Assembly: GCA_963676565.1 (NCBI GenBank)
Contig: OY781089.1
Coordinates: forward strand, 2,592,001-2,656,000
Direction: 5' to 3'
Length of the DNA: 64,000 nt
Source of the DNA: Halarcobacter sp.
Lineage (GTDB): Bacteria; Campylobacterota; Campylobacteria; Campylobacterales; Arcobacteraceae
Part shown: positions 7,068-45,476 of the stretch, one piece after another
Layout of the letters: every line of letters begins with the position of its first letter
Position numbering within the stretch: position 1 is the stretch's first letter
Program-made: the position numbers and the translations under genes
Notes under the pieces: model-generated
Database searches by the model: none
What the model saw: the letters and a program-made list of their open reading frames with translations, nothing else
What the model was told of the DNA's origin: nothing

Positions 7068-7580
7068 TTATAAGATTTTGTTTATATCTTCGATTAGTTT
7101 TTGTGAGTTTTCATCTAATTTTGTATTAGAGTTTTTTGAAATAAAATCTTCTATACCTGAAGTTCTCATAGAAAATTGTTTTGAATATTTAATTATCTCT
7201 TCATCTAAGTTACTAACTCCAGCTTTTGTTTGAACTAAATAGATATTGAAACTATTATCTTCTATTGTGAATTTTACATGGTTAAAATAAACCTTTGCAT
7301 CTTTAAATATCAAATCTAAGGTAAGTGTATCTTTTCTAAAAAAAGGAAAGGCTTGTTGTGCTTCTCCTAAAACTTCTGTGATTAGATAATAAGCTAAAGT
7401 ATCAGGTGTCAAGTTATCAGTACTAATTCTTTTTTCCTGTTTATTAAAGTATTCATCAACTAATCTAATAAAAAAATTAGATGACATAACACCAATATCT
7501 TTTAATATTACACAATTTATGTATTCATAAACTAAATGTGCATTCTCTTTTATAAATGCTTTCAGCTCTTTTTCTTGCAT
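7068..7580 (-). CDS. Hypothetical protein
   Basis: 170-aa ORF with AGGA RBS; no motif recognised. Confidence 0.65.
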   Translation of the reverse strand: MQEKELKAFIKENAHLVYEYINCVILKDIGVMSSNFFIRLVDEYFNKQEKRISTDNLTPDTLAYYLITEVLGEAQQAFPFFRKDTLTLDLIFKDAKVYFNHVKFTIEDNSFNIYLVQTKAGVSNLDEEIIKYSKQFSMRTSGIEDFISKNSNTKLDENSQKLIEDINKIL

Positions 7581-7736
7581 TTTTGTTTCCTATAAAAATA
7601 TATTTATTTAAAAAAAAGATTTTATCTAATTAGTTGTTAAATAGTTAAAATGTAGATTTTAAACTAACTTCTAAAAATATTTTGCTTAGTGGTACTAAAA
7701 TTGCATATACAAAAAGATTAAGAAAAGGAATATATT

Positions 7737-8207
7737 ATGCAAGATTTTATTGATATGTACAAAGAAACTTATCAGATTAAACAGCAAATTAAACTCGATG
7801 AATCACTAAACCAAGGTGATATACAAATTATTGAAGATGGATATAAAATAAATGCTAGCAAAGATGCTGATGTTTTAGAGATATTAGGGAAAATAAAACT
7901 TCACACAATAGTTAAAGATGATAGAGTATTTAATCCAACAACTAATTTTATGGAAATCATTGTTTTAGCTTGGATATATAAAACTATGTCAACTGTTTTA
8001 GAAGTTTTAGAGATGGATTTATTACTTGAAAAACTTTTAATAAAAAAAGAACATGATCCAATAGCCTCATATGCCGTACTTAAAATACTTGAAGCTAATC
8101 CCCTACTTTCAGGAGCAGATTCTAGTATGATAGATCACTATCTAACAATGGAGCTTACAAGCGAACTAATGAATCAAATGGAAGATAAAAAAGAAGAAGT
8201 TAATTAA
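7737..8207 (+). CDS. Hypothetical protein
   Basis: 156-aa ORF with AAGGA RBS. Confidence 0.65.
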   Translation: MQDFIDMYKETYQIKQQIKLDESLNQGDIQIIEDGYKINASKDADVLEILGKIKLHTIVKDDRVFNPTTNFMEIIVLAWIYKTMSTVLEVLEMDLLLEKLLIKKEHDPIASYAVLKILEANPLLSGADSSMIDHYLTMELTSELMNQMEDKKEEVN

Positions 8208-8347
8208 GATTCTTCTGATGAGTCAGAACTTGATTCCTCAGATTTACTCTCTTTTAAAGATTCTTTCTTTTTACGCTTTTCTTCTTTTTTTCTAAGTTTT
8301 TCTAACTCTTTTGCTCTTTTTTCATAATTGTAATTAGTTTTAGCCAT
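8204..8347 (-). CDS. Small charged protein (47 aa), not in ORF track
   Basis: MAKTNYNYEKRAKELEKLRKKEEKRKKKESLKESKSEESSSDSSEES*, preceded by AAGGA RBS. Confidence 0.7.
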   Translation of the reverse strand: MAKTNYNYEKRAKELEKLRKKEEKRKKKESLKESKSEESSSDSSEES

Positions 8348-8530
8348 TCACTATCCTTGTTGTGTTTTATAAATTGGTAAAACAATAATTATTTTTAATA
8401 TTAAAAATATAGTAAATGCTCTAAAAATCTATGTTTTGTTATATTATATAGTGTAGCGTAGCTTAATGGCATTTTGTCTTAAGTATAAAAACTTATTAGC
8501 TTCAAAATAAAAATATTAATTTTAATAATA

Positions 8531-8600
8531 TGTATATATACAAAGTAATACTATTTAAACACTTAATATTTTGTATAAATACAAAGTATTATGATATAAT
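8531..8600 (+). promoter_or_regulatory. hipBA-like promoter with two palindromic operators
   Basis: TGTATATATACA (8531-8542) and TTTGTATAAATACAAA (8570-8585), followed by extended -10 TGATATAAT (8592-8600). Confidence 0.6.
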
Positions 8601-8618
8601 ATTTCAAAAGGAGTTCTT

Positions 8619-8957
8619 ATGGATTTTAACTTATTAACAAATGAAGATATTATAAAAGAACTTGGTAAAAACTATGAAGAGTTAAGACTTCAAAAAAGAC
8701 TTTCTGATGATGATGTTCATAAAAAAGGTGGTGTTAGTATTGATGCCATCCAAAGACTAAAAAATGGTTCTAATATAAACTTATTAAATTTTATAAAGAT
8801 TTTAAGAGGACTTGGAGAGTTAGACAAGCTTCAAAAACTACTTGAAGTAAAAGAGGAGTTTAGTATTCAAGAAAAAGTAAAAAACACTAAACCCAAAAGA
8901 ATATTCAAATCTAAAAAAGATACCAATAGTGACTTTATTTGGGGAGAAGATAAATGA
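8619..8957 (+). CDS. XRE/HipB-like HTH antitoxin
   Basis: ELRLQKRLS...GGVSIDAIQRLKNG...LLNFIKILRGLG; ATGA overlap with the hipA-like gene. Confidence 0.75.
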   Translation: MDFNLLTNEDIIKELGKNYEELRLQKRLSDDDVHKKGGVSIDAIQRLKNGSNINLLNFIKILRGLGELDKLQKLLEVKEEFSIQEKVKNTKPKRIFKSKKDTNSDFIWGEDK

Positions 8958-10273
8958 GTAAAATAGTTGAAGTAAAATTATGGGGTACAACTATTGGATA
9001 TCTTGGTTACCCAAAAGATTCAAATATAGCGCAATTTGAGTATGACAAAAACTTTATGAAATCTAATATTTCACCCTCACCTTTACTGATGAATTATCCA
9101 CCTGACAAGTTTTATTTTGAAGATATTAGTTTTAGAACTTTTAAAGGAGTAGCTGGAGTTTTTGCGGATTCTTTGCCAGATAAATATGGGAATCAACTAA
9201 TCGATCAATTTATGGCAGAGAAAAAAATCCCCAAAGAAGATATAACAACTCTAGATAGATTATTATATGTGGGGAAAAGAAGTATTGGAGCTTTGGAATA
9301 TCATCCTTGTGAATTTGAAGATGATTTTGAAAAAAGTGCAAAAGCTTTAGATATATCTTTATTGTCTCAACTAGCTGAATTAGTAATTACAAAAAAAGAC
9401 AAACTAAATGATAAATTAAAAGATTCAAAAACAAAAAAAGAGGCACTTGATTTGATTAGAGTTGGTTCTAGCGCAGGAGGAGCAAGGGCAAAAGCACTTA
9501 TTGCAAAAGATGAAGATAAAAAGAATATATATATTGATGGAACAAACTTATATGAAGGGAACTATTCTTATTGGCTTTTAAAATTTGATTCATCTGCAAA
9601 TCAAGATAGGGATTCAAAAGACCCAAAAGGGATGACTAGAGTTGAATATATCTATTCCTTGTTTGCTAAAGAGTGTGAGATAGATATTCCTGAAACCTCA
9701 TATTTAGAAATAGATGATGATTTTCATTTTATGATAAAAAGATTTGATAGAGTTGTAGAAAATAAAAAAACCTCAAAACTACACTATATATCTTGGGCTG
9801 GACTATCTCATTATGATAGAGATACAACAGGGGCATACTCATACGAACAACTAATCTTAAACTTACGTCAACTAAACTTTGGACAAGAAGAGATTACAGA
9901 AATTTTTAAAAGAGCTGTTTTTAATATAGTAGGAAGAAACCAAGATGACCACACAAAAAACTTTGGATTTTTGATGAATAAAAAAGGAGAATGGAGTTTA
10001 TCCCCTGCTTTTGATATGACCTACTCTTTTGACCCATCTGGGACTTGGACGAAAGTTCATCAAATAAGATTAAATAAAAAGCAAGATAATTTTACAAAAG
10101 AAGATATTATTGCATTTGGGAAATATTGTAATCTAACTCAAATACAATCAACAAAAATCCTTGAAAAAACTATTGGGATATTTAAAAAATTTGAAAAACT
10201 TGCAGATGAATATAAGGTACCAATAAAAGTGAAAGATATCATCTCTAAAAATTTGAGAAGAGATTTAATTTAG
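8954..10273 (+). CDS. hipA: HipA family Ser/Thr kinase toxin
   Basis: DSLPDKYG N-terminal domain, SAGGARAKA, KRFDR, NQDDHTKNFGF, LSPAFD. Confidence 0.9.
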   Translation: MSKIVEVKLWGTTIGYLGYPKDSNIAQFEYDKNFMKSNISPSPLLMNYPPDKFYFEDISFRTFKGVAGVFADSLPDKYGNQLIDQFMAEKKIPKEDITTLDRLLYVGKRSIGALEYHPCEFEDDFEKSAKALDISLLSQLAELVITKKDKLNDKLKDSKTKKEALDLIRVGSSAGGARAKALIAKDEDKKNIYIDGTNLYEGNYSYWLLKFDSSANQDRDSKDPKGMTRVEYIYSLFAKECEIDIPETSYLEIDDDFHFMIKRFDRVVENKKTSKLHYISWAGLSHYDRDTTGAYSYEQLILNLRQLNFGQEEITEIFKRAVFNIVGRNQDDHTKNFGFLMNKKGEWSLSPAFDMTYSFDPSGTWTKVHQIRLNKKQDNFTKEDIIAFGKYCNLTQIQSTKILEKTIGIFKKFEKLADEYKVPIKVKDIISKNLRRDLI

Positions 10274-10870
10274 TACCTTATTTATATTAGATAAAGAAGC
10301 AACCTCTCCTGGCATTAGACTATCAATATGAATCTCACCAATTCTAATTCGAACAAGTCTTAATGTAGGGAATCCAACAGCAGCAGTCATTTTTCGAATC
10401 TGACGTTTCTTTCCTTCACAAATCGTAATAGATATCCAACTAGTAGGTCCATGTTTTGGATGACGAATATTTTTTCCTCGAGGTGGTAAATCTGGCTCAC
10501 CATCAATTGCAAATGCTTTACAAGGAAGAGTTAAATATTTGCTCCCACTTACAGTAATTTCAACACCCTTTTGGAGATTAGAAATTGCATCCTCTGTAAT
10601 CACACCATCAACTTGCACATAGTACTCTTTTTCTATACTTTTATTTCTAACTTTATGACTTGTCATACCATCAGTTGTAAGTAATAATAAACCTTCTGAG
10701 TCATGGTCTAACCTTCCAATAGCCATAGTATCCTCAGGAAAATCATAAAAGTCACCTAATAAGCTTTTATTTTTCATTTTTTCTTGCTTGAATTGACTTA
10801 AACACCCATATGGTTTAAATATTTTAAAGTGCTGGTGAGTTTGTTCTGATGTAGAGTTTTCATTTGGCAT
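10265..10870 (-). CDS. rluE: RsuA/RluE family pseudouridine synthase
   Basis: KPYGCLSQF, GRLDHDSEGLLLLT, EGKKRQIRKMTAAVGFPTLRLVR. Confidence 0.8.
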   Translation of the reverse strand: MPNENSTSEQTHQHFKIFKPYGCLSQFKQEKMKNKSLLGDFYDFPEDTMAIGRLDHDSEGLLLLTTDGMTSHKVRNKSIEKEYYVQVDGVITEDAISNLQKGVEITVSGSKYLTLPCKAFAIDGEPDLPPRGKNIRHPKHGPTSWISITICEGKKRQIRKMTAAVGFPTLRLVRIRIGEIHIDSLMPGEVASLSNINKVLN

Positions 10871-10926
10871 TAAAGATATCCTTTAGATTATGTGGAATTG
10901 TAACTTTTATTTTATAAAGTTGCGAT

Positions 10927-12207
10927 TTAATCTTTAATATCTTTTTTGTATACCTTTCCATTGAATTTTAATATAGATTTTTGGTTCGTTGTTATTACTT
11001 TAGCATCACATTCCCCATTCTTATTAACTTCATTTTTGGTTTCTGTAACCTTGCTTTTTATCAAAATATTAAAAAAGCCATTTGATTTTTGGTTTGACAT
11101 AATTAAAGTGTTTTTAGTATCTGTAAATTCACCAGAACAGTTACCGTTCCATTCACCAATGGCGTTCATCACGGAGTATTTATCAAGAATTTTTTTTAGT
11201 CTGTTGCCTGATTTGATAAAAAGAGACAAGGTTTCGCTTGTATAAGGATTAACTCTTGACATTCCCTGATAGCGTACTTTAACACCAAAAGCTCGAATCT
11301 TTTTATTAATAAAGTATCGCGCTGTATCTATACTGATTTTTCTAAGCATTATGGCATCTGAAACCCATTGGTTCGTTTGACTGCTTTCAAAGAATTTTTG
11401 TATTATTTTTCCAGTACGATTATCGGCAATAACAATATGACTGTTGAGGGCAAAATATTGTATTCCCTCTTCTACAATCTCTGGTATAACTATAATCACT
11501 TCATTTGGAGTTTGAGGGTTGGCTTTTGATACAATCAAATCTGTTTTTACTAATAACGGATCAAGACCTAATTCTTTTAAAACAGATAAAACTAATGTGA
11601 AATTTGATAAGGTGTCATTTAGTCTCTTTGAATTTGTCCTGTCAATCGTACCATCAAAATTAATAACAAATTCCTGTACTTCTATTTTTTTGACCAAATC
11701 CCAAGAAGTATGGTGGCTTGTGATAGCACGTTCACTTATTCTTGATTTTATTTGAGTCAGACCTTCAGCTATCTCGTCATAGACAATCCGCTGATAATCA
11801 ATAACATTGCCTTTTAAATCATAGTTTATCAAGGTAGATTCCATTTCATATTCACCCAATTTATAGGTAACCACCACCGTATAGAAGTTTTGAGACAAAG
11901 TTACTTTGTAAGAACTCACTGCTTTATACTTAGATTTTTCTTGATAGAAATCAGGATATATAGTTTCAATCTTCAAAGCGTGACTATCAATGGATTTAAA
12001 GTCAGCAACGTCAATAAAATCATCAAAGTTTGTGGTATCAACTACTGGCAGTTTTCTCTCTTTTAGAGTATTTATCACGTCTTTAAAATCAATAGATTTC
12101 TCTACTTGTTCTATTGCACCTTCCACTTGCTTTTCATCTTGTTTTTCTTGTCCAAAAGAATAAGAGAACAACAGCGATATAAGTATAAAAATTTGCATAT
12201 GTTTCAT
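10927..12207 (-). CDS. Secreted hypothetical protein
   Basis: 426-aa ORF with N-terminal signal peptide. Confidence 0.65.
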   Translation of the reverse strand: MKHMQIFILISLLFSYSFGQEKQDEKQVEGAIEQVEKSIDFKDVINTLKERKLPVVDTTNFDDFIDVADFKSIDSHALKIETIYPDFYQEKSKYKAVSSYKVTLSQNFYTVVVTYKLGEYEMESTLINYDLKGNVIDYQRIVYDEIAEGLTQIKSRISERAITSHHTSWDLVKKIEVQEFVINFDGTIDRTNSKRLNDTLSNFTLVLSVLKELGLDPLLVKTDLIVSKANPQTPNEVIIVIPEIVEEGIQYFALNSHIVIADNRTGKIIQKFFESSQTNQWVSDAIMLRKISIDTARYFINKKIRAFGVKVRYQGMSRVNPYTSETLSLFIKSGNRLKKILDKYSVMNAIGEWNGNCSGEFTDTKNTLIMSNQKSNGFFNILIKSKVTETKNEVNKNGECDAKVITTNQKSILKFNGKVYKKDIKD

Positions 12208-12209
12208 GA

Positions 12210-12596
12210 TCAGATCCAGTCTAAAGTTTTTTCAAGAAAATAGTGTAAGAAAGCTAAAATAACTAATATTAACAACATAGAAATTCCACGTTTTAAGAAC
12301 ATATACTTAGATAAGTTACATTTTTTTTTCAGATAAAAGAGATCAAAAAGTATAAATAGTATAGCTAAAATGGCTCCTATAATACCTCCCACAAAAAACA
12401 CTCCAAAAAAAAGCATTTTGGAATAAATAAAAGATAAGAAATTTGTTTCTTCTGGCGTTGGACCTGCAATCAAGTATGAAAGTAAATACATATAGCCAAT
12501 ACCTAGAATCAAGGCAATGACTGTCCAAAGGGCATACTCTAAAATGAGTTTTCCCACTTTATTGGATTGAACAACGTTTTTTTCGTTCGTCTTCAT
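12210..12596 (-). CDS. Hypothetical membrane protein (about 3 TM)
   Basis: Three hydrophobic segments; tightly coupled to neighbours. Confidence 0.6.
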   Translation of the reverse strand: MKTNEKNVVQSNKVGKLILEYALWTVIALILGIGYMYLLSYLIAGPTPEETNFLSFIYSKMLFFGVFFVGGIIGAILAILFILFDLFYLKKKCNLSKYMFLKRGISMLLILVILAFLHYFLEKTLDWI

Positions 12597-14145
12597 TGGG
12601 TATTCCTTTCATTTTGTCTAACAAGTCAGGATCGCTAAAGTCTAACTCTTGCTCAATATTGCAAATATAGATAGATGAATTTTTTTCATTACTTTCTTTT
12701 ACCCTAAAAAGGGTATTGGTTAATACCCAATGAGTATTTTTAAAAGTAATGTAGTGGTTAGCCTCGTTAAGTCCGCGATCAGGAAATGTTGTTTGAATTA
12801 AAAAGCCATTTTCTTCTGCTAATACATCAACAATTTGATTTCCACCATCTTCTGAAAAATTGGTACTTTTTAAAGCAAATCGGTATGCTCCATCTTTATT
12901 GATAAACAGTAATAACTCATCTTCTTGGTATGGAATTGAGCTTACTACTTTGTCCAAAGCATAGTCATTGTTGATATCAATGTCTCTAACAAAATAATTT
13001 TTATTGTTCAAGTAGTATGATATATCTTTACCTATAGGATTTTTCTTATTCTCTTCCACATTAAATTCATTTGCAAACAAATCATATATAATATGCATTT
13101 TGTGATTATTAAAGCTATGCGTAAACTTTTTGTCAAATTGTGGATGTTGTCCATCAAAGAGAAAAAACAAAACTGACTTTGCTTCTTTAAATTCCAAGGT
13201 ATTGATTAGATTATATCGCTGTTTTTTCTTGATATACTTTATAAATTTATCTTGAAAATAATTAACGGCATCAGCTTGCCATTTACCATTTTTTGCAATA
13301 TTAATGAGTTTTTTTTCATAGTTCTTATACTTTTCATTTGAAATCAACTCAAAAAAATAAGCAATATAAGCATTGCTTTCATTGTAAAGTTTGCTGGGGG
13401 AATCGTTGTACTCATTCCATCCAAAATAACTTACAAATTCTTGAAAACTATCAGGAAAGAGATTTAGAAAAAGTACCTCATTTTTTGTGGAGAACGCCAG
13501 CTTTATTTGAGCTATAGAAATACTGTTATCTAGCGGTTCTTCAACATCAGAAATTAAATCATTGTTATTGAACTTGCGATTGGGTTTATTAATCAAATTT
13601 CCCTCATTGAAGAAACTAAACTTTCCACACTCTAAAGTGACATTGACTTTACAGTTAGAATAATCAAATTCTGCCAACTTATACTTACTATACATACCTA
13701 ATTCTTCAGTGACCAAGCCACCTAGATCTTCTTCGTTTTCTAAAAAATATGCTGTACCTTCATCTTGAAAAACACTAAAAGGAAAAGCCTTAGAATACTT
13801 ATAAAATAAAATTGAATCTTCTTTTTGATAAGCTAGTTTCTTGCCTGTTGAAAACCCTTTTTTCAAGTGTTCTGTTACTTTTTCCCTAATTACTTGATGA
13901 AGAATACTCTGATCCTTTTCAGGATACTTTACTAAATAAAGATTAGGATAGACCTCGGATTGTATAAACATCATATTCTTAAAAAAGAAGTGGTTAATAA
14001 TCTGTACAGTAAGACCAATAACAAATAAAGCCAAAGCCACTCGTGACCTTTCTTTATTTTGTAAAATCCACTTTATTAATCTAATGGCAAAAAATAGTAA
14101 GCCAATACTCAATAGAAGAAACAAAATGATGAGGATTATTTCCAT
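12559..14145 (-). CDS. Membrane-anchored hypothetical protein
   Basis: 528-aa ORF with two N-terminal hydrophobic segments. Confidence 0.65.
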   Translation of the reverse strand: MEIILIILFLLLSIGLLFFAIRLIKWILQNKERSRVALALFVIGLTVQIINHFFFKNMMFIQSEVYPNLYLVKYPEKDQSILHQVIREKVTEHLKKGFSTGKKLAYQKEDSILFYKYSKAFPFSVFQDEGTAYFLENEEDLGGLVTEELGMYSKYKLAEFDYSNCKVNVTLECGKFSFFNEGNLINKPNRKFNNNDLISDVEEPLDNSISIAQIKLAFSTKNEVLFLNLFPDSFQEFVSYFGWNEYNDSPSKLYNESNAYIAYFFELISNEKYKNYEKKLINIAKNGKWQADAVNYFQDKFIKYIKKKQRYNLINTLEFKEAKSVLFFLFDGQHPQFDKKFTHSFNNHKMHIIYDLFANEFNVEENKKNPIGKDISYYLNNKNYFVRDIDINNDYALDKVVSSIPYQEDELLLFINKDGAYRFALKSTNFSEDGGNQIVDVLAEENGFLIQTTFPDRGLNEANHYITFKNTHWVLTNTLFRVKESNEKNSSIYICNIEQELDFSDPDLLDKMKGIPNEDERKKRCSIQ

Positions 14146-14179
14146 GAAGTTACATCCTTAGGGCACTGCAATCAATAAG

Positions 14180-14563
14180 CTAATACCATTTAGTCAAATA
14201 CTTGATACGAGCATTTGTCATTTCAATTTCGCACTCAAGTCTGGCTTCATTGCGTTGCATACCCCCACTTTGAAGTACATAAAATGCATCACAATTTTTT
14301 TTCTTGAATTCAAGCCAGCTACGTTGGCTAATAATCAAGCTTTGTTTCAATTCATTAGCATCAACTAAGGCTGCATCGGGTAATTTTCCCGTGTTTATGC
14401 TACTCATAATAGCTTTATAAATACGATTCAATTCAGCATCAGATGACTCTTGTTCAAGCTGTAGCTCACATAAAGAAGTAGGCAGACCACAACGTTCATC
14501 AATATCTTGTGCAAACAATTGGAAAGTCGTACAATAAAAAAATAGAACCAAGAACCTAATCAT
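14180..14563 (-). CDS. Lysozyme inhibitor LprI / DUF1311 family protein
   Basis: Signal peptide, SDAELNRIYK, SQRSWLEFKKKNC, CEIEMTNARI. Confidence 0.8.
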   Translation of the reverse strand: MIRFLVLFFYCTTFQLFAQDIDERCGLPTSLCELQLEQESSDAELNRIYKAIMSSINTGKLPDAALVDANELKQSLIISQRSWLEFKKKNCDAFYVLQSGGMQRNEARLECEIEMTNARIKYLTKWY

Positions 14564-14585
14564 TTAACTTTCCTTTTATTAAAAT

Positions 14586-14639
14586 ATATAACGTTTAAGT
14601 TGAAAAACATTTAGTAATAGTTAATAATAAATATTTTTA
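14586..14639 (-). repeat. Truncated attC (right half only)
   Basis: Minus strand: AAAAATATTTA...TAAATGTTTTT-CAACTTAAAC-GTTATAT; same right arm as the 70-bp attC sites, but R'' and its spacer are missing. Confidence 0.6.
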
Positions 14640-15050
14640 TTTAACTCCACATTTACTATCAAGTATTTTAGCTAAACTATCTCTTTTTTTATCTGCTTTC
14701 ATCAGTCTTTGATACTCTGATTCATCATTATTCTTTTTAGCTTCAACTTTTGCCATAAAAGATTGATACGAATATAATGAATCATACATAAATAATTTTC
14801 CATCGATTTTATCTATCTCTTTTGCTGCACATTTACAATATTCTAATTCTTTTTCATTTTTGGCTTGTTTTTCACAAGTGATTTTAAACATCTGTTTTGA
14901 TTTTTTAATTTGCCCACTTTTTAGCATCTGTTCATACATCTCTTGATTTGCTTTAACTTGATAAAACTCTTCAATATTCATAGATAAAATATTGTTAGCA
15001 AAACATTGTAATGATAAAAAAGATATAAGAATTAAATATTTGATGCCCAT
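14637..15050 (-). CDS. Secreted hypothetical protein (cassette gene)
   Basis: Signal peptide, Cys residues; followed by an attC remnant. Confidence 0.65.
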   Translation of the reverse strand: MGIKYLILISFLSLQCFANNILSMNIEEFYQVKANQEMYEQMLKSGQIKKSKQMFKITCEKQAKNEKELEYCKCAAKEIDKIDGKLFMYDSLYSYQSFMAKVEAKKNNDESEYQRLMKADKKRDSLAKILDSKCGVK

Positions 15051-15219
15051 TCATTTCCTTTTATTTTTTAGTTTATTTAACAATCATAGTATCTTTTTGA
15101 GACTTAAATAATACTCTTCAAAATAAAGCTTGTAAATATATTAAATAATTATTAATATTACTCCAAAATGAAGTTAATTAAAATCATTTTCTGCAATAAT
15201 TTTAAACTATTCTTTTGTA

Positions 15220-15278
15220 GTTTAACGTTTGAAATAAGCCAATAAATTTCCCGCATGGTAATTTATTGGCTGTTATAT
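15220..15278 (-). repeat. attC of the blaOXA cassette, left arm shortened (59 bp)
   Basis: ATATAAC-AGCCAATAAATTACC-ATGC-GGGAAATTTATTGGCT-TATTTCAAAC-GTTAAAC. Confidence 0.75.
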
Positions 15279-16028
15279 AATATTCTTAAATTTTAAAGCT
15301 TCCATTACAATTTGTTTTCTATATTTTAACTCTTCTTTTTTAATATCAGCATTTAAGGCAAAAAACCAAATGTTATTTTTAGTTTCAACATATCCTACAT
15401 ACCATCCTATTTTACCTGACCATCCTGATTTGGCTTTTATTATATAATCTTTTGTTTTTTCAACAGTTAATATTTTTTTTGTAATATCGATATATTTTTG
15501 TTGAAAGGGTAAATCATCTTTATATAATTTTTTGAGAAACTCTATTTGTTCAACTGCTGATATTTGTAGATCACCTTCTAGCCAAAAAGTAGATACATCT
15601 AAACCAGTTTTTTCATTACCGTAATCTATTTTTTTTAACCAATCTAAATATTTTTCATTTCCTATTTTTTTTGCAAATCTTTGATAACACCAAACGCATG
15701 ACATTGCAATAGCACTTTGTAAAGTTTGATCTTTATTCCATGGTTCATAAAATCTTTTTTTACCATCCCACTTAATAATTTCATATTCGTCTTTTATCAC
15801 TCTTTCTTCTAAAACAATAAGTGTATTTGGTATTTTAAAAGTTGATGCTGGAATATATCTTTTTATGGCTCTTGTATCGTTATGTATAAACTCTTCATTA
15901 TTTAGTGATGACAAAACAATTGTTCCATTGATTTTTGTTTTTTTAAAAATGTTTTCTAACTCTTTATCTTGTGCTAGTGCAAAATTGAACAAAATGTTTA
16001 TCAGTATAATTATTTTTACATTGTTCAT
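15273..16028 (-). CDS. blaOXA: Class D (OXA) beta-lactamase, 251 aa, cassette-borne
   Basis: STFK, SCV, YGN, FWL and KSG motifs; signal peptide from ATG 16028 with AGGGG RBS; stop codon lies inside the attC TAAC. Confidence 0.92.
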   Translation of the reverse strand: MNNVKIIILINILFNFALAQDKELENIFKKTKINGTIVLSSLNNEEFIHNDTRAIKRYIPASTFKIPNTLIVLEERVIKDEYEIIKWDGKKRFYEPWNKDQTLQSAIAMSCVWCYQRFAKKIGNEKYLDWLKKIDYGNEKTGLDVSTFWLEGDLQISAVEQIEFLKKLYKDDLPFQQKYIDITKKILTVEKTKDYIIKAKSGWSGKIGWYVGYVETKNNIWFFALNADIKKEELKYRKQIVMEALKFKNII

Positions 16029-16040
16029 TTTTCCCCTTTT

Positions 16041-16166
16041 ATATAACGCCCAGTTAAGGGGTGAAGCACGCAATGACCAAGCCTCTGCATAGCACATCAA
16101 CATCGAAATCCAACGCATAGCAAAAATGCCACGCGTGCTGAATCCCTCTTGAACTGTTTGTTATGG
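16041..16166 (-). repeat. attC, Vibrio-repeat (VCR/VXR)-like, 126 bp
   Basis: Minus strand CCATAACAAACAGTTCAAGAGGGATTCAGCACGC...GCGTGCTTCACCCCTTAACTGGGCGTTATAT. Confidence 0.9.
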
Positions 16167-16643
16167 CGCTCCACTCAACGTTAGCTCTTGTATATCAACT
16201 TGGTCTACTTCCCTGCCTAATATTAGCTTGTACTCGACTAAACGATGAACTGGGATAACTGGCAACTCGATACCTTGATAATCTTTAATAACTGATTCTG
16301 AGAAGTAAATTTCAAGCTGGTGCCAAGAGCCATCTTGACATGATTGTATCTTAGTATGTTCAGACAAACCGATTTCAATTTTTTGATTTTGGTAAACCAA
16401 TTGGAAATACTCTAGATCCCAACCATATTCGGCATAATGAGTTAACGGTTTGGATATGTATTTTGCTACATGCGATAGCACTTTGTCTGCGTCTGAGTTT
16501 CGAATATAAAGATCTATATCTGCGATTTCCCGACTTCCACCATGAATAGTTGCCGCTAATCCACCTACTATTTGATACTCCACAACCTCTGCATCTAAGA
16601 TCTCTTTGAGCCACTGCAAGGCTACTTTAACTTTATCACTCAT
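16161..16643 (-). CDS. Nucleotidyltransferase-fold protein (cassette gene)
   Basis: IVGGLA...REIADIDL motif; visibly more GC-rich than host genes; stop codon in attC R''. Confidence 0.7.
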   Translation of the reverse strand: MSDKVKVALQWLKEILDAEVVEYQIVGGLAATIHGGSREIADIDLYIRNSDADKVLSHVAKYISKPLTHYAEYGWDLEYFQLVYQNQKIEIGLSEHTKIQSCQDGSWHQLEIYFSESVIKDYQGIELPVIPVHRLVEYKLILGREVDQVDIQELTLSGAP

Positions 16644-16673
16644 CTAGTTCCTTTAGCTGAATTTTGCCTTGCG

Positions 16674-16733
16674 CCATAACGCCCCACACATGGGCGCAGC
16701 TTTGCTGCGTCCTTGTGCTGTGGCTTGTTAAGG
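16674..16733 (-). repeat. attC, 60 bp GC-rich (59-base-element size class)
   Basis: CCTTAACAAGCCACAGCACAAGGACGCAGC-AAA-GCTGCGCCCATGTGTGGGGCGTTATGG. Confidence 0.88.
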
Positions 16734-17069
16734 GTGCGCATCAGGTTTTGCAACAACCTTAAGACGATTTGTTTTAACCCAAACACCTGCATCCTCCTCT
16801 TTGCCACCATATATAATTTGAGAGAATCCATCATACTCACTGTAAATACCTACTCCATCTTTTGGAATTATAAATTTCCCTTTAATCGAGCATGATTCGT
16901 GCGGTGCTGAATAAAATTGTGCTCGCCCTTCACCAACAACTTCACCCATCCATACCCTGTGCCAGTATTTGGCTTTTGCTTTAACATCCAGAGCTTTGCA
17001 ATCTATGTCTTCATTGCTATAGGCATTAAAAGATAAAACTAATGTGAAAAGCGTAATGATCATTCTCAT
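16728..17069 (-). CDS. Secreted hypothetical protein (cassette gene)
   Basis: Signal peptide; stop codon in attC R''. Confidence 0.7.
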   Translation of the reverse strand: MRMIITLFTLVLSFNAYSNEDIDCKALDVKAKAKYWHRVWMGEVVGEGRAQFYSAPHESCSIKGKFIIPKDGVGIYSEYDGFSQIIYGGKEEDAGVWVKTNRLKVVAKPDAHP

Positions 17070-17076
17070 GCTAAAC

Positions 17077-17146
17077 CCTTAACGTTTGAGTCGAGAAATA
17101 TTTGAGCCGCTAAGGTCAAATATTTCTCTCCAATGATTTGTTATAT
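17077..17146 (-). repeat. attC, 70 bp AT-rich type
   Basis: ATATAACAAATCATTGGAGAGAAATATTTGACC-TTAGC-GGCTCAAATATTTCTCGACTCAAACGTTAAGG. Confidence 0.88.
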
Positions 17147-17550
17147 ACTAGTTTACTATTAATAATTTGGATTATTCCTTCAACATTATCCTTAAGTATA
17201 ATAGCTCGTTCAATAAATAAAGATACATCAGAATCAATTATATTTTCATCATCAATTAAAGTATTTTCAATTAGACCGGAAAAGTATGAGTGTATTTCAT
17301 GTATTAAACAATTTCTTTGATCTTTTAACATATTTAAAGCAGGAACAACATTCTTCAATGAATCATGTTTTTTTAATTTAAATATTAATCCACCTAATGT
17401 GCTTTCAATAAACTGTGAATTTTCATTATTTTCATCAAGAAATTTTTTAATTAAGCTTTCTAATTTTCCAGTAATTAAAATGACACGACCAAGTTCCATA
17501 CAAAATCTATCATTAGTATATAAAAGATTATAAAAATGTTTATTACTCAT
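17116..17550 (-). CDS. Hypothetical protein (cassette gene; reads into its attC)
   Basis: AGGAG RBS right after GTTATGC; C-terminal YNKSLERNI is encoded by the attC left arm. Confidence 0.7.
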   Translation of the reverse strand: MSNKHFYNLLYTNDRFCMELGRVILITGKLESLIKKFLDENNENSQFIESTLGGLIFKLKKHDSLKNVVPALNMLKDQRNCLIHEIHSYFSGLIENTLIDDENIIDSDVSLFIERAIILKDNVEGIIQIINSKLVYNKSLERNI

Positions 17551-17563
17551 TCAAACTCCTTAT

Positions 17564-17634
17564 GCATAACGTTTAAGGAGAGCAATATTTGACACAAGGG
17601 CGGGTCAAATATTGGTTCCTACGTTTTGTTAGTC
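17564..17634 (-). repeat. attC, 71 bp AT-rich type
   Basis: GACTAACAAAACGTAGGAACCAATATTTGAC-CCGCCCTTGT-GTCAAATATTGCTCTCCTTAAACGTTATGC. Confidence 0.88.
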
Positions 17635-18105
17635 ATTTAGTTGACTCGCTGATTCTTCTATCGTCTTGATAGGGTCTTCCATAAATTTACAGGCTTTTGA
17701 AACTTTTAAATCTTCAATTATCTCAGATAAGTTTGGTTGTAGAACTTTACTAGACTCTTCAGCATATAACAAACACTTTTCTTCATCTGCTATTGTAATG
17801 AAATTTTCCAAAATTTTTATATTGTCTTGTGCTGGAGAAAATTTAAGAACAACAGCTTCAAATTTTTCATCTGTTTTATAAATCTGTATTTGAGAACCCC
17901 AGTTATCGTCTGATTTAAATTCTTCAACATCACCCCAACTATTATTAATTGGTAATAAAGAACGTATTGAATTCATGAAATTTGTTGAGGGGTTTGAAAA
18001 CTCTTCCCAAGCAAAATAATCATCTAGCGCACTTTGAAAATCAGTTTTATGCTTTTCTACAAACTCTTTAGGAATGATTTCAATATTATATTGAAAAATT
18101 GCCAT
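17629..18105 (-). CDS. Hypothetical protein (first cassette gene)
   Basis: AGGA RBS after GTTAGTCA; stop codon in attC R''. Confidence 0.7.
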   Translation of the reverse strand: MAIFQYNIEIIPKEFVEKHKTDFQSALDDYFAWEEFSNPSTNFMNSIRSLLPINNSWGDVEEFKSDDNWGSQIQIYKTDEKFEAVVLKFSPAQDNIKILENFITIADEEKCLLYAEESSKVLQPNLSEIIEDLKVSKACKFMEDPIKTIEESASQLND

Positions 18106-18118
18106 TATTTATCCTAGT

Positions 18119-18140
18119 GACTAACTATTTATTGAATATA
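18119..18140 (-). other. attI-like (or attG-like) junction at the array start
   Basis: Minus strand TTCAAT-AAATA-GTTAGTC; GTTAGTCA complements TGACTAAC of the first cassette's attC; no hairpin upstream. Confidence 0.65.
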
Positions 18141-18323
18141 AATTATATAAATAAAGTACTTAAATACACTTATTTATTATATATTTATAATAATTATATA
18201 AAATAATATTATTAGATATATATTGTGAAGAATAAATTTATTAAAGTATACTTCCAATAACTTAAAAGAGCTTGTCACATTAGTTTGGAGTGATTACCTA
18301 ACTTTGTCATAAATAGGGGGGGG

Positions 18324-18350
18324 GTAAGGACGTTTGTCCTTACTTTTTTT
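18324..18350 (+). terminator. Intrinsic terminator, plus-strand oriented
   Basis: GTAAGGAC-GTTT-GTCCTTAC followed by T7, preceded by a G9 run. Confidence 0.7.
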
Positions 18351-19098
18351 ATGAGTATAATTGAATAAACTTATTTTCTTGAAACTCCATTAAAATGCAT
18401 TTTGAAACTTTTAATTTTTCTAGTAAATCTTCTGGAGATATAGGTAAACAATTAAGATTTATTTTTTTAGTAACATTCATAATATTTATAAACTTTTTAT
18501 CTGTGGTTAAAAAATAATCTAATCCGTTCACTTCTGCACTCCATAAATGAAAAGCATCAGGTAGCTGTTTATCTGATAAACCTGAACATATCTCTTTAAA
18601 TCTTTCTATATTGTTAATAGATTTTTTTGTTAAGTTGGGATAACTACTAGTATTTCTTACTAAATTCTTTATATCAGCATTATTTAAAGAAAGCAAAAAT
18701 TTACAAAAGTCAATAACATTTTTGTTATCTATAAATTCAAGAAAATCCATACTTTGAAAGTAGCTTCTATCAATCGCTGGTTCAATAAATTTAATTGAGA
18801 CATTTTTTAAAAGATATCCTCTCTCTTCTAGGAAAGTTTTTTTCCAACCTTCAAATTTAACTTCATCATAAGAGAAGAAATGTATCTTATTCTCATAAAC
18901 TAAATTTACAATTGTTGGAATACACATAATTTGATTCCTTTTCCATTGATTATTATCATCTGGTAATGGTTTTCTAACATAGCCTAAAATATCATTAGTA
19001 AGTACTTGATTACCCCATTTAAGTGTTTTTTGAGAAATTTGATACTGTAATGTTTCACTTAAACTAAAAATACAATTATCTAAAAAAACTTTTATCAA
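18349..19098 (-). CDS. PIN-like domain protein
   Basis: VFLDNCIF at N-terminus and DAFHLWSAEVNGLDYFLTTDKKF near the C-terminus. Confidence 0.6.
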   Translation of the reverse strand: MIKVFLDNCIFSLSETLQYQISQKTLKWGNQVLTNDILGYVRKPLPDDNNQWKRNQIMCIPTIVNLVYENKIHFFSYDEVKFEGWKKTFLEERGYLLKNVSIKFIEPAIDRSYFQSMDFLEFIDNKNVIDFCKFLLSLNNADIKNLVRNTSSYPNLTKKSINNIERFKEICSGLSDKQLPDAFHLWSAEVNGLDYFLTTDKKFINIMNVTKKINLNCLPISPEDLLEKLKVSKCILMEFQENKFIQLYS

Positions 19099-19136
19099 TT
19101 ATTGACCTCTTAAAATAGTAGTTTGATTAAAATATA

Positions 19137-19241
19137 TTTTGTCGTAAGCTTGGTGTAGATTTTACCGAAGTCTAGCGAAGGTGTACTACTCGTACATCGA
19201 AGCTAGAATTCGGTGAAAGATGCGCCGAAATTACGGCAAAA
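19137..19241. repeat. Long imperfect palindromic element after the guaA stop
   Basis: Nested arms TTTTGTCGTAA/TTACGGCAAAA, TTTTACCGAA/TTCGGTGAAA, TCTAGC/GCTAGA, TGTAC/GTACA. Confidence 0.7.
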
Positions 19242-19244
19242 AAA

Positions 19245-20780
19245 TTATTCCCACTCGATTGTTGCTGGTGGCTTAGAAGAGATATCATATACCACTCTAT
19301 TAATCCCATCAACTTCGTTAATAATTCTTCTAGAAATAGTTTCTAATACATCATGAGGGATATGTGCAAATGTAGCTGTCATACCATCTGTTGCTTCTAC
19401 AATTCTAACACATACAGTATTGTCATAAGTTCTATTATCACCCATAACACCAACTGATTTTACATTTAGAAGTACTGTAAATGCTTGCCATGTTTTATCA
19501 TATAATCCAGTTGCATGTAAAACATCTAGCATGATAACATCTGCTTTTCTAAGTAATTCTAAATCAGGTTTATTAACATCTCCCATCACTCTAATAGCAA
19601 GTCCAGGACCAGGGAAAGGATGTCTACCAATCATATCTTTTGGAAGTCCAAGTTCAAGTCCTAAAAGTCTTACTTCATCTTTGAAGATTTCTCTTAAAGG
19701 TTCAATTAACTCAAAAGTCATCCAATCTGGAAGTCCACCAACATTGTGATGTGACTTGATAGTTTTAGAAGGTCCTTTAACTGAAACAGACTCAATAACA
19801 TCTGTATAAAGTGTACCTTGTGCTAAGAACTCAATACCATCGTGTTTTTTTGCTTCTTTATCAAATACTTCAATAAAAGTTTCACCGATAATTTTTCTTT
19901 TTCTTTCAGGATCAGTTACTCCAGCTAATCTTTCAAGGAATAGTTCACTTGCATCAGCAGTAATAAGATTCACACCTCTTGCTTTAAACATAGCTTCAAC
20001 TTGTTCTCTTTCATTTGCTCTTAATAAACCATTATCAACAAATACAGGAATAAGTTGGTCTCCAATAGCTTCAGCTAAAAGTGTTGCAACAACAGAAGAG
20101 TCAACTCCTCCACTTACACCACATAATACTTTTTTATCTCCAACTTGGTCTTGGATTTTTTTGATTTGTTCTTTTGCAAATGAACCCATGTTCCATGTTG
20201 ATTCACAACCACAAACATGTTTTGCAAAGTTTTTAAGAATCTTAGCACCTTCAGCTGAGTGATAAACTTCTGGGTGAAATTGAAATGCATAAATATTTTC
20301 ATCTTCTTTTGCAATTGCTGCAAATGGAGAGTTTTCACTTGTTCCAATAACTTCAAAACCTTCTGCTAATTTGTCAACTTTATCTCCATGTGACATCCAA
20401 ACAGTTTGTCCATCAGTTGTGTCTTTGAAAATCGCACACTCTTTTTCAAAAGTAAGTTTTGCTTTCCCGTATTCATGATGATCTGCAGGGATTACTGAAC
20501 CACCATAAAATTGAGAGATAAGTTGCATACCATAACAAATACCCAAGATTGGAAGTCCAAGATTAAAAATCTCTTCATCAGGGTGATATGCATCTTGTGC
20601 ATATACTGAAGCAGGTCCACCACTTAAAATAATACCTTTTGGAGTTCTAGCTAAAATATCTTCGATTCTTTCACTATATGGTACAATCTCAGAGTAAACA
20701 CCAGCTTCTCTTAATTTTCTTGCGATAATTTGTGTATATTGACTACCAAAATCTAATACAACTATTGGTACATGTTTCAT
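19245..20780 (-). CDS. guaA: GMP synthase (glutamine-hydrolysing)
   Basis: [37 protein letters not shown]. Confidence 0.98.
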
Positions 20781-20877
20781 TAAATAGATTCCTTATTTTC
20801 TAATTAGTATCCGCGATTATAACTAAAGAGTAATTTAATATTGATTAATAGAAAAATAAGTGAGTAAAAGAAGAGAA

Positions 20878-20904
20878 TGTAAAAGTGCAAAAAGCACTTT
20901 TACA
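20878..20904. terminator. Hairpin after nhaD
   Basis: TGTAAAAGTGC-AAAAA-GCACTTTTACA. Confidence 0.55.
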
Positions 20905-20911
20905 AATAAGA

Positions 20912-22306
20912 TTATCCTACGTGATAAAATCCTAAGATTTCGTATTGAACATACCAAATAGTAACAGAAGCAATATATCCAATAAGGATAGTCCATGCAT
21001 ATTTCATATGTGAACCAAATGTATAAATACCATGAAGTTTACCCATAACTCCAACACCTGCTGCTGAACCAAATGAGATCAATGAACCACCAACACCCGC
21101 TGTAAGTGTTACTAACATCCATTGGTCAAGACCCATTTCAGGAGATGCTTTAAGTACTGCTGACATAACAGGAACGTTATCAACGATTGCAGATAAGAAA
21201 CCAACACCAATATTTGACCAAGTTGGTCCTAATACTGATGGGTCATAAACTACAACTGCTAATGCTAACCATCCAATAAAGTATAATGCACCAACTGCAG
21301 CTAAAATACCAAAGAAGAACATTAATGTATTATTTTCAATTTTTGCCATTGAATGGAAGATATTAAAGTGGTCTTTACCATGTTTTCTTTTTAAACCATA
21401 AGAATAAACTTTAAGTAAAGAAAGACCAAACATCATACCCCACATAGCTGGTAAATGTAATACTTGGTGAGACATAACAGCACAGAAAATTGTGAATACA
21501 CCAAGTCCCATTACTACTTTTGCACCCTCTGCCATTTGTGGTTTAAGCTCTTTTGATGCATCAAAATCAGGTTTTGTTTCTGGAACAAATTTAGAAAGGA
21601 TAAATGCAGTAATTAAATATCCACCAATAGAAGATGGGAATAAAAATAAGAAATCAGTAAATGTACCCTTACCTGCAGTCCAAGCCATAAGTGTAGTAAT
21701 ATCTCCAAATGGTGACCAAGCACCACCTGCATTTGCTGCAACAACAATATTAATTGCACCAGGTACTAAGAAGTCTTTTCTTGTTTTTTCAATTGTTATT
21801 AATACAGTTGATAAAATAAGAGCAGTTGTTAAGTTATCTGCAATTGGAGAGATAAAGAATGCCAAAATACCAGTTACCCAGAAAAGTTTTCTATATGTAT
21901 AACCCTTTGAAACTAGATTATATTTTAAGCTATCAAATACTCCCATATGGATTAATGACTCAATATAAGTCATAGCAACAAATAAGAAGAAGAAAATTCC
22001 AGCAATTTCTAAAATCAAGTGTTGCGCTTCAGTGTGCACCAACCCTAAATCTAGACCATTTAACGCATAATATAGCGCAACTAGAATAAACATAAACGTA
22101 CCAATAAATAGTGCAGGCTTTGCCTTATCAATTTCGTACTTCTCCTCAGCAGCTACGAAATAGTAACCTACCACAAAAATAAATAGACAAGCGAATCCTA
22201 CCCAAGTCATAGTTAAATCAGGTGCAACTTCTGCCGTACCAGAAGCTCCACTCGCTGCTAACAGCGATAAAGATGATAAAAATAACATCATCAACAGTTT
22301 TAACAT
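20912..22306 (-). CDS. nhaD: Na+/H+ antiporter NhaD
   Basis: ADNLTTAL, ANAGGAWSPFGDITT, SAIVDNVP, GGSLISFGSAAGV. Confidence 0.9.
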   Translation of the reverse strand: MLKLLMMLFLSSLSLLAASGASGTAEVAPDLTMTWVGFACLFIFVVGYYFVAAEEKYEIDKAKPALFIGTFMFILVALYYALNGLDLGLVHTEAQHLILEIAGIFFFLFVAMTYIESLIHMGVFDSLKYNLVSKGYTYRKLFWVTGILAFFISPIADNLTTALILSTVLITIEKTRKDFLVPGAINIVVAANAGGAWSPFGDITTLMAWTAGKGTFTDFLFLFPSSIGGYLITAFILSKFVPETKPDFDASKELKPQMAEGAKVVMGLGVFTIFCAVMSHQVLHLPAMWGMMFGLSLLKVYSYGLKRKHGKDHFNIFHSMAKIENNTLMFFFGILAAVGALYFIGWLALAVVVYDPSVLGPTWSNIGVGFLSAIVDNVPVMSAVLKASPEMGLDQWMLVTLTAGVGGSLISFGSAAGVGVMGKLHGIYTFGSHMKYAWTILIGYIASVTIWYVQYEILGFYHVG

Positions 22307-44234: not shown

Positions 44235-45476
44235 TTATCTCATTAAACCATTAAAGGCATTAATTGCCCTACTTGCTTGTTCTTTACTTGTTTTAGCGTA
44301 CCTTTGTTCTGTTATAGTGATACTACTATGTCCTAACATTCTACTTATATCTTGTATAGGCACTCCATTTTGCACTAATGTAGTTCCTAACATATGTCTT
44401 ATATCATGTAATCTTAATTTAGGTAAACCTAAAGCCTTTAATATATTTTGAAAATGTACTCTTGGTGTTTCTCTTGTATATGTAAATATCTTGGCTTCAC
44501 TTTTAGAATATAAATCAATATTTCTCAATCTTGATTGACTCTTTAAAGCTTCTAAAATATATTCATCAATTTCAAAATCAAGCTCTTTTTTTCCCTTTGT
44601 ATTTGTAGAGACTATTTTAAAAGAATTTGACTCAAAATTTAAATCACAAAATCTTAAATTTAGTATTTCATTTATTCTTCTTCCAGTCAAAGAAAAAGCA
44701 AATATATTTTTGATTTCTTCATATTGATAAAATACTTCATCACCTATATCAATTCGTGAATATTCTCTTAAAACTTTTATTATCTTCTTTGTATCATCTA
44801 AAGATAAAGTATATTCAACCTTGTTATCAACTTCGGGTAATTCTAAATCATCAAAATCAAGCGATATTTCTTTTTTATATGTTTTAAAAAAAGCCCTTAA
44901 TGTCCTTGCATATAAGGCTACTGTTGCAGGTGCTTTTTTAGAATCTAATAATCTATGAATAATCTTTTGAATATCTTTTATTGTAATAGCTGAAAAATTT
45001 TTATCATGTAATTCTCTTGAGTGAGTTCTTAGTGTAGTTTCATAGTTTTGTAAAGTTGATTTTCTTGCAGATACTTCTTTGTCTTTTAAAAAGTCATCAA
45101 CTTTATCTAAAAATGTTTCTTTTTCTTTTATATCTATTTTATCTATTTTTTTCTTTTTTCGTAGACTTTCACCTGCTTTTAGTTTTTCTTTTATATCAAG
45201 TCTAATAGAGTCTACAATATCAAGTAAGTCTTTGAAGGATTTAACAAAAAGTAGTTCTTTATTTGTCTTTGTTTCATGATAGTTAAAAATGAGATTCTTT
45301 TTACCTCTTTTTCCTTCTATCTTTACTCTAAGTTGTACTTTGATTTCTTTCTTCTTTTTGAGTAATTCATTACCTTGTTTAACTGTTGTTATATCATCTT
45401 TAAAAGTATCATCAAACTCTAAAAACAATCCTACACAATTTCTATTTGTAATATTAATTAATCTAAATTCACTCAT
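44235..45476 (-). CDS. Tyrosine recombinase/integrase
   Basis: Catalytic set TGRRINE (R), KGKK (K), HDIRH, LGHSS, RYAK (Y). Confidence 0.93.
   Translation of the reverse strand: MSEFRLINITNRNCVGLFLEFDDTFKDDITTVKQGNELLKKKKEIKVQLRVKIEGKRGKKNLIFNYHETKTNKELLFVKSFKDLLDIVDSIRLDIKEKLKAGESLRKKKKIDKIDIKEKETFLDKVDDFLKDKEVSARKSTLQNYETTLRTHSRELHDKNFSAITIKDIQKIIHRLLDSKKAPATVALYARTLRAFFKTYKKEISLDFDDLELPEVDNKVEYTLSLDDTKKIIKVLREYSRIDIGDEVFYQYEEIKNIFAFSLTGRRINEILNLRFCDLNFESNSFKIVSTNTKGKKELDFEIDEYILEALKSQSRLRNIDLYSKSEAKIFTYTRETPRVHFQNILKALGLPKLRLHDIRHMLGTTLVQNGVPIQDISRMLGHSSITITEQRYAKTSKEQASRAINAFNGLMR

Follow-up and report, generated by a model that had tools for sequence, protein, structure and literature searches.

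An integrase-less cassette array beside guaA in Halarcobacter sp., probably orphaned by loss of its integron integrase

Beside guaA in Halarcobacter sp. (GenBank assembly GCA_963676565.1, contig OY781089.1), small genes follow one another on the minus strand with hairpins between them, and no integron integrase gene (intI) adjoins them. The question raised by this locus is whether these genes form an integron cassette array and, if so, how the array came to stand there without an integrase. We analysed the 64,000-nucleotide stretch from 2,592,001 to 2,656,000 of the contig, here called the window; positions are those of the window unless they carry the prefix C1. An original prediction, made from the letters alone, had proposed a chromosomal cassette platform that was either served by a distant integrase or orphaned by intI deletion. 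Our results argue with high confidence for an attC cluster that lacks an integron integrase (CALIN), formed by intI loss from a sedentary chromosomal integron with a platform ancestral to the genus.

The cassette array and its attC sites

Reading the minus strand from 18400 to 14100, we found seven co-oriented open reading frames (ORFs), each with a Shine-Dalgarno-like AGG or GGA stretch 5' of it. After each of the first five comes an imperfect inverted repeat beginning in ...TAAC and ending in GTTA.... Reading and folding together gave five sites with the full set of attC characters (R''-L''...L'-R' order, RYYYAAC/GTTRRRY cores, a hairpin, and the strand of the ORF), and a sixth site that falls short of this set. 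The five attCs fall inside 2.4 kb and have no intI near them; a CALIN is defined by at least two attC within 4 kb. The predicted run of at least five minus-strand cassettes, each ending in an attC hairpin, was recovered, together with a decayed sixth. The array is composed as follows.

18125-14586, minus strand: whole array from its head to the sixth site; five cassettes bounded by canonical attCs, then a sixth whose attC is decayed
18122..18190, minus strand: predicted attI, heading the array; crossover GTT at 18125-18123; conserved TATAAT box ~18 nt before the GTT
17570..18124, minus strand: cassette 1; 158-aa ORF (18105-17629) and attC1 (17635-17564), native type
17083..17569, minus strand: cassette 2; 144-aa ORF (17550-17116) and attC2 (17147-17077), native type
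16680..17082, minus strand: cassette 3; 113-aa orphan ORF with a hydrophobic N-terminus (17069-16728) and GC-rich attC3 (16735-16671)
16047..16679, minus strand: cassette 4; 160-aa ORF of putative nucleotidyltransferase fold (16643-16161) and 131-nt Vibrio-type attC4 (16169-16039)
15226..16046, minus strand: cassette 5; predicted 252-aa class D (OXA-type) beta-lactamase (16031-15273) and attC5 (15280-15220), native type
14592..15225, minus strand: cassette 6; 137-aa ORF with an N-terminal hydrophobic stretch (15050-14637) and decayed attC (14627-14586)

Four pairs of self-complementary cassette ends, of the kind expected of circular cassettes, were present exactly as quoted in the prediction. 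GTTAGTCA at 18125-18118 pairs with TGACTAAC at 17635-17628, and the further pairs are GTTAAGGGT/ACCCTTAAC, GTTATGGCGC/GCGCCATAAC and GTTATATAA/TTATATAAC. For cassettes 2 and 6 the end complementarity covers 5 bases only. Folded as single-stranded DNA and compared with shuffles, attC1, attC2, attC3 and attC5 gave z values of -6.8, -4.8, -2.9 and -4.6. The sixth site gave z -0.8: of it R'' and the 3' portion as far as R' remain, with TAAC and the ...CAACTTAAAC|GTTA end, and its hairpin is gone. Through a crude scan of both strands of the 3.34-Mb chromosome, 39 TAAC..GTTA hairpins of up to 85 nt were counted, and 4 of these 39 stand within 2.4 kb in this array.

A covariance model, R1, was made from short hairpin sites beside intact or decayed intI in eight other species. 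Of 17 such sites 15 entered the model, two GC-rich ones being dropped because they could be aligned only poorly; sequence of the window was not included. Compensatory changes occur in 4 of the 17 pairs of this genus attC family. Searched against the window with filters off, R1 matched attC2 with 82.1 bits (E 2.6e-16), attC1 with 57.4 bits (E 1.6e-10) and attC5 with 37.8 bits (E 6.4e-6), all on the minus strand, with at most 24 bits on the opposite one; an attC model drawn from other species does recognise the native hairpins. Its score at the sixth site, 13.5 bits (E 3.3), was not significant. Over 28 loci, 51 of 53 R1 matches fell on the strand expected from the array, the other two being weak opposite-strand echoes of strong matches. 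The attC2 site is 90-97% identical to attCs of many congeners.

Two of the native attCs are damaged: attC5 by an internal deletion that removed 10 nt between R'' and L'' (a copy in congener G093 is full length), and the sixth site by the loss of its hairpin. Deletions of this kind inside two native attCs are consistent with decay that followed integrase loss.

The predicted attI site and the probable loss of the integrase

The prediction had noticed that the first cassette joins a non-hairpin site, and this proved correct: the junction CAATAAATA|GTT is present at the array head and is the attI core found throughout the family. To map the platform, we searched 40 relatives at the DNA level and then used tblastn and blastn on 22 loci. 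The layout in the genus is guaA, intI (divergent from the cassettes), an intergenic region of about 230 bp, attI, the cassettes and an rluF-like gene. In all intI-bearing genus loci that were aligned, the core TATAATGTATRTTCAATAAATA|GTTR ends the intI-proximal intergenic region and the sequences diverge right after GTT; divergence just past a conserved core indicates an attI followed by differing first cassettes. Of 12 loci from other genera in the family, 8 have the core as well, 160-311 nt upstream of intI, and three of the four loci without it had less than 300 nt of flank available. Because the conserved element occurs at 18122-18190, we identify the non-hairpin site as the predicted attI heading the array, with a GTTRRRY-type end. 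In a different intI-bearing congener, G104, three attI-like copies about 2 kb apart stand in one array (L037, G104:C1:2644000-2661900, at 7574-11639); one of them comes after half a native attC and a shortened intI-attI intergenic region, a sign that platforms may have been duplicated and lost their intI.

Congeners carry intI exactly between guaA and this same attI, and the chromosomal platform of the prediction is supported. The 14 congener guaA loci fall into three groups: four with intact intI (G096, G101, G087 and G093), four with fragments of it (G105, G094, G099 and, as a 23-aa remnant, G097) and six in which it is undetectable. This integron lineage is common: an integron integrase scored above the TIGR02249 cut-off in 7 of the 24 congeners and in 44 of the 184 family genomes. 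In the window, similarity to the intI-attI intergenic region ends upstream of ~18192, and a 249-aa ORF lies beyond it. The flanks of the array are:

18349..19098, minus strand: PIN-like gene, 249 aa; fills the slot of congener intI, in the orientation opposite to intI
19245..20780, minus strand: guaA, conserved anchor; 90-97% aa identity in 14 congener loci
10265..10870, minus strand: rluF-like pseudouridine synthase gene, conserved far flank; the label is ours, with no family-library scan of the protein

The rluF-like gene follows the cassettes in G096, G101, G104, G085 and G090, and is present in G086. A hipA-like gene (8954-10273, plus strand) converges on it with a 9-base overlap at the 3' end, and the pair is kept in G086 and G104; the name hipA-like comes from our reading of the translation, with no family-library scan behind it. 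G086 is the closest relative (guaA 97% identical in aa). It has hipA-like, rluF-like, PIN-like and guaA in this order, with no attI and no cassettes, and its homology with the window reaches the edge of the attI element and no further.

The genome is one contig, a 3.34-Mb chromosome estimated 99.97% complete, and no integron integrase was found anywhere on it. The best TIGR02249 score was 50.4 bits against a cut-off of 265, and tblastn with congener IntI returned only a 43-aa match, in an Xer-like gene. The complete integron, with intI adjoining the array, is absent here, as its intI slot holds the PIN-like ORF. Since the chromosome holds no integron integrase, the array would be frozen, a CALIN. 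The two best tyrosine recombinases scored 43.6 and 83.6 bits to the IntI model and look Xer-like. The former (44235-45476, minus strand) is a generic 413-aa recombinase, Xer- or phage-integrase-like, located between the guaA platform and a further platform at radA (see below), and it may mark an integrated element.

The prediction had placed a PIN-like gene and guaA where intI might be expected. Both are there, and the fold match behind the name of the former is weak. The 249-aa ORF has no Pfam or NCBIfam match. Its predicted model has a pLDDT of 92, and the best Foldseek matches are to PIN-like RNase P of the HARP/PRORP kind, at E 3.7e-4 and TM 0.35-0.47. Among 38 homologues E79, E83, D181 and D200 are invariant and D7 nearly so, and on this predicted structure the name "PIN-like" seems reasonable. 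A 91% homologue occurs in a record named Arcobacter arenosus; otherwise homologues are patchy, at 24-49% identity. We also considered this gene as a replacement recombinase, and rejected this by its predicted nuclease-type fold and by its 91% homologue in G086, which stands without an array.

Two small features were observed around the gene. Downstream of it, at 18316-18324 on the minus strand, a run of nine C comes right after a hairpin; G086 has three C in this place. A T-run follows the hairpin on the plus strand, and it looks like a terminator facing the array. Downstream of guaA, the conserved stretch 19099-19245 (minus strand) can form a hairpin of about 105 nt (RNA z -3.2); the stretch is 77-95% identical in several congeners, where it also lies between guaA and intI.

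Probable sources of the cassettes and their turnover

Most cassette genes have no recognisable family. No credible protein family was found for cassettes 1, 2, 3 and 6; the cassette 1 ORF matched nothing in Pfam, NCBIfam or PADLOC, and that of cassette 2 no family even at E<=5. For cassette 3, a search among ~5.8 billion proteins gave a single homologue (55% identity) beyond the protein itself. The GC content of this cassette is 0.42-0.44 beside neighbouring cassettes of ~0.25-0.30; cassettes 3 and 4 together span 0.39-0.44 and the native-type cassettes ~0.20-0.30. The cassette 6 ORF has a copy, 77% identical in aa, beside the rluF-like gene in G087. No cassette had a credible defence-system match in PADLOC, whose only matches, both marginal (E 8e-4 and 1e-2), fell on the PA3715-family protein encoded beyond cassette 6.

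Cassette 4 is of Vibrio type. From end to end it is 93% identical in nucleotides to a Vibrio alginolyticus cassette (NZ_CP099958.1), which carries the annotation "MazG-related protein" and is located among small co-oriented ORFs. By pairwise alignment the identity runs from the GTT of the preceding attC to the GTT of attC4, and both flanks are unrelated. The attC4 site itself is 89-95% identical to repeats in many Vibrio entries, with up to 40 copies per record, and this Vibrio match independently supports its assignment as a predicted attC. Two extra bases on its R''-L'' arm, read from sequence and fold, are what we take to be the canonical extrahelical bases. The cassette 4 ORF shows weak, near-full-length similarity, below cut-off, to TM1012 and the ANT(2'') nucleotidyltransferase family.

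Cassette 5 is predicted to encode a class D beta-lactamase. Its protein scored 275.6 bits to NF012161 (cut-off 250) and E 1.8e-38 to PF00905, and aligned with an OXA-48-like protein of the PDB at E 4e-58, the stretches PASTFKIPN, DYGNE and AKSGWS being conserved. These include STFK, YGN and KSG, which we take to be the class D active-site motifs. The protein lies below every named OXA-family cut-off in NCBIfam (OXA-198, -372, -2, -48, -10 and others): the best of them, OXA-198-like, gave 250.6 bits against a cut-off of 515, and identity to OXA-198 is at most 45.8% in aa. No other such gene occurs in the genome. Among named proteins it is closest, at 54-83% identity, to class D enzymes of Arcobacter, Poseidonibacter, Halarcobacter and Sulfurimonas. 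G093 has a copy, 91% identical in aa, in a different array, with native attCs on both sides. Direct origin from resident OXA genes outside cassettes was considered: the three such loci compared, in G101, G104 and G095, are 52-63% identical in aa and have no attC, and are thus not the immediate progenitors.

The blaOXA cassettes of mobile integrons (OXA-2, OXA-10, OXA-198) share with this one the format of a single class D gene with its own attC. The cassette of the window differs from them in having the native attC type, no mobile-integron context, and a place in a clade whose named members are mostly from the four genera above. A 2026 paper on Arcobacter class D beta-lactamases describes them, in the portion accessible to us, as chromosomal or transposon-borne (PMC13644095). 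In the literature searched, supplements lying outside the search, we found no description of integron arrays or of cassette-borne blaOXA in Arcobacter.

Comparison of the guaA locus across relatives revealed variable cassette content and no fixed gene order. When cassettes 1-6 were compared with the 14 congener guaA loci, the only one shared was cassette 1, with G105, where a copy of its ORF 92% identical in aa stands at another position of the array. We also compared contigs of public sequencing runs over 9000-21000; being assembled contigs, these can show that a part is present and how it is joined, but not that it is absent. Run X3 has a 71-kb contig with the whole array in the same order at ~98% identity. 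In run X10 contigs match 9000-17147, with next to no cover for cassettes 2 and 1 and the PIN-like gene, and one contig turns into unlike sequence precisely at attC2, at its outer edge. Distal cassettes that are shared and attI-proximal ones that differ are the pattern predicted by stepwise insertion at attI. In run X2 all parts are present, at a depth of ~45 in the flanks and ~5 in cassettes 1-3 and the PIN-like gene. Joints with a short side below 30 letters (for example 15271 to 18122 in X10) were excluded, as they are probably repeated attI or attC copies. Cassettes thus behave as discrete units bounded at G|TT in three comparisons: cassette 4 against Vibrio, the OXA cassette in G093, and the divergence of X10 at attC2.

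Beyond cassette 6 comes a block that may or may not be a cassette:

10921..14591, minus strand: distal four-gene block; LprI-family gene (14563-14180), genes for 528-aa and 128-aa proteins, and PA3715-family gene (12207-10927); no internal attCs

The R' of the decayed attC is where the block begins, and it ends within 60 bp of the rluF-like gene, abutting its promoter region. Family matches in it were PF07007 (3.9e-14) and NF052451 (1.5e-67). In G087 it is 93-96% identical in aa but truncated. The terminal junction segment of G101 and G090 is missing here.

How the array arose, and further platforms

On the reading that we favour, the ancestral platform of the genus would have been guaA, intI, attI, cassettes and the rluF-like gene. 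In this lineage the PIN-like gene would have replaced intI and the intI-proximal half of the intergenic region, leaving attI intact. As the cassette boundaries suggest, the cassettes would have been captured singly, through IntI-mediated attC x attI recombination at G|TT, while an integrase was still present: cassettes 1, 2, 5 and 6 from native sources (genus attC family), cassette 4 from a Vibrio-type source and cassette 3 from a GC-rich, foreign-looking one. They are probably transcribed as a unit from a promoter in attI, with its TATAAT box, the beta-lactamase in fifth position included; attI may thus serve as the promoter Pc.

Several observations weigh against this account or narrow it. 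R1 did not match attC3 or attC4, which is explained by the model describing one sequence family, the native one; the 131-nt attC4 folds no better than shuffles (z 0.0), and attC3 is backed only by its hairpin, its GC-rich composition and the complementarity of its cassette ends. The 3.7-kb distal block has no attC at its far end, so that the span from attI to the rluF-like gene is not all canonical cassettes. A scan for sigma-70 promoters and terminators did no better than shuffles (31 sites, 30.4 expected), and the share of sequence words found in the RNA runs listed was at most 0.07. The integrase search covers a chromosome-only assembly, and an intI on an unassembled plasmid is possible. 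The run evidence consists of assembled contigs, and X3 possibly comes from the same population as the genome of the window. For the direction of transfer between Vibrio and Arcobacter, GC content and attC type are the only evidence.

The other half of the prediction's choice, an array still active and served in trans by an IntI on a plasmid or at a distant locus, has some points in its favour. In the part of Cury 2016 available to us (PMC4889954), half of the CALINs lie in genomes that encode IntI; attI, attC1, attC2 and attC4 look intact here, and congeners with one intI hold many dispersed attC clusters. We nevertheless consider it very unlikely, as the nearly complete single-contig genome has no integron integrase, its best tyrosine recombinases are Xer-like and far below the cut-off of 265 bits, and two native attCs carry deletions. 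Of the two origins offered by the prediction, orphaning by intI deletion is therefore the one favoured, and a distant IntI is not found on the chromosome. A small-gene operon whose hairpins are ordinary terminators or REP-like repeats is almost certainly the wrong reading. In its favour, the genome is AT-rich with many hairpins, the scan class above 85 nt is noisy (240 matches, mostly tandem repeats and coding sequence, and not used here), and no Rfam family was matched in the window at gathering thresholds (0 families). Against such an origin of the hairpins, the same repeat family follows bona fide intI and attI in other species, strand polarity and the complementarity of cassette ends are kept, an exact cassette-sized unit is common to Vibrio, and no T-tract terminators were called at the attCs.

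More weight may be given to arrival of the array as a block, through homologous recombination in the guaA and rluF-like flanks with an intI-bearing relative, the PIN-like gene being already in place. G086 has the PIN-like gene and guaA with no attI or cassettes, the flanks are conserved enough for recombination (guaA 90-97% in aa), and the depth contrast in X2 (~45 against ~5) indicates that co-occurring strains differ at the locus. This too seems unlikely to us. The PIN-like gene is contiguous with attI and the homology of G086 extends up to the attI edge, for which a later deletion of attI and the array in G086 is simpler; and the X10 contigs share the distal but not the attI-proximal cassettes, as stepwise insertion predicts. 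Loss of intI from a resident integron is thus the explanation that we retain.

CALINs formed by intI loss are an established category, and intI loss is named among their possible origins in the part of Cury 2016 at hand (PMC4889954). In the same source 95% of CALINs have no nearby intI pseudogene, recognisable ones being found near only 15 of 279, and resistance-type genes occur in only 31 of 1933 CALIN cassettes. Ghaly et al. 2021 list Campylobacterota among the phyla with integrons and give the same mechanisms of CALIN origin, as far as the accessible text goes. Measured against the CALINs of PMC4889954, within what is accessible of it, the array is alike in having at least two attC on one strand without intI, five to six attCs, and mostly cassette genes of no known function. 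It differs from typical ones in keeping attI, in an origin that can be traced to a platform with intact or decaying intI in congeners, and in carrying a resistance-type gene. The sedentary chromosomal integrons of Vibrio (the superintegron with VCR-type attCs) are similar in their genus-wide platform, homogeneous genus attC family, mostly ORFan cassettes and variable content, and a Vibrio cassette with its attC type, as described above, is present here. In contrast to the Vibrio superintegron, the host belongs to a different phylum (the family label is taken from record source names), the arrays are small and dispersed, and the integrase has been lost repeatedly within the genus.

The guaA array is not the only trace of integrons in this genome. 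Genome-wide, R1 gave eight matches at E < 0.01: three in the guaA array, four in a second array and one solitary. The further sites are:

C1:160737-164401 (L030 4738-8402), minus strand: second array, between cysS and an RNase T-like exonuclease gene; four R1 attC matches
C1:2659039-2659103 (L031 7040-7104): third attI copy, ~3 kb past the window end, beside radA

In the second array the attC matches lie at 160.7-163.6 kb and an attI copy at 164338-164401, with no integrase. Its ORFs include HNH_2, two ABM, a transglutaminase-like one, another of the LprI family and two of no assigned family. The third attI copy keeps the whole intI-attI intergenic region, without intI. In relatives the radA position holds an intI pseudogene (G106) or an intact intI (G146), which makes radA a second conserved integron anchor. 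Judged from these sequences, the genus has more than one platform, and the integrase is apparently lost from all platforms of this genome. Congeners that bear intI have many small dispersed attC clusters (22 R1 matches in G087 and 28 in G101). The hairpin scan also marked long repeats elsewhere: 34 identical matches at 315-bp spacing at C1:1910777-1921314 point to a long, perfect tandem repeat that is probably a giant repetitive gene, and a similar repeat with 441-bp spacing is located at C1:3022138-3024041.

The value of this locus lies in the fact that most CALINs have no traceable origin, and here the decay of the integrase can be traced. A decay series is visible within one genus: intact intI, pseudogene, 23-aa remnant, replacement gene, and disappearance of the entire array. 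This genome adds several orphan attI sites, two of them beyond the guaA array. A Vibrio-type cassette would have recombined into the integron of another phylum, and a class D beta-lactamase of the Arcobacter/Sulfurimonas clade occurs as a cassette of mobile format in at least two species, which bears on the origins of resistance cassettes. A broader picture, which we offer as tentative and rather doubtful, is that chromosomes of this genus carry several platforms (guaA, radA and cysS-exonuclease), that all three have lost their integrase here and retain intact attI cores heading co-oriented genes, that the arrays are kept as fixed promoter-driven operons, and that there has been cassette traffic with marine Vibrio and packaging of a clade-native beta-lactamase with the genus attC. 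If this were true, the genus would be a tractable natural system for studying how cassettes arise and how integrons die.

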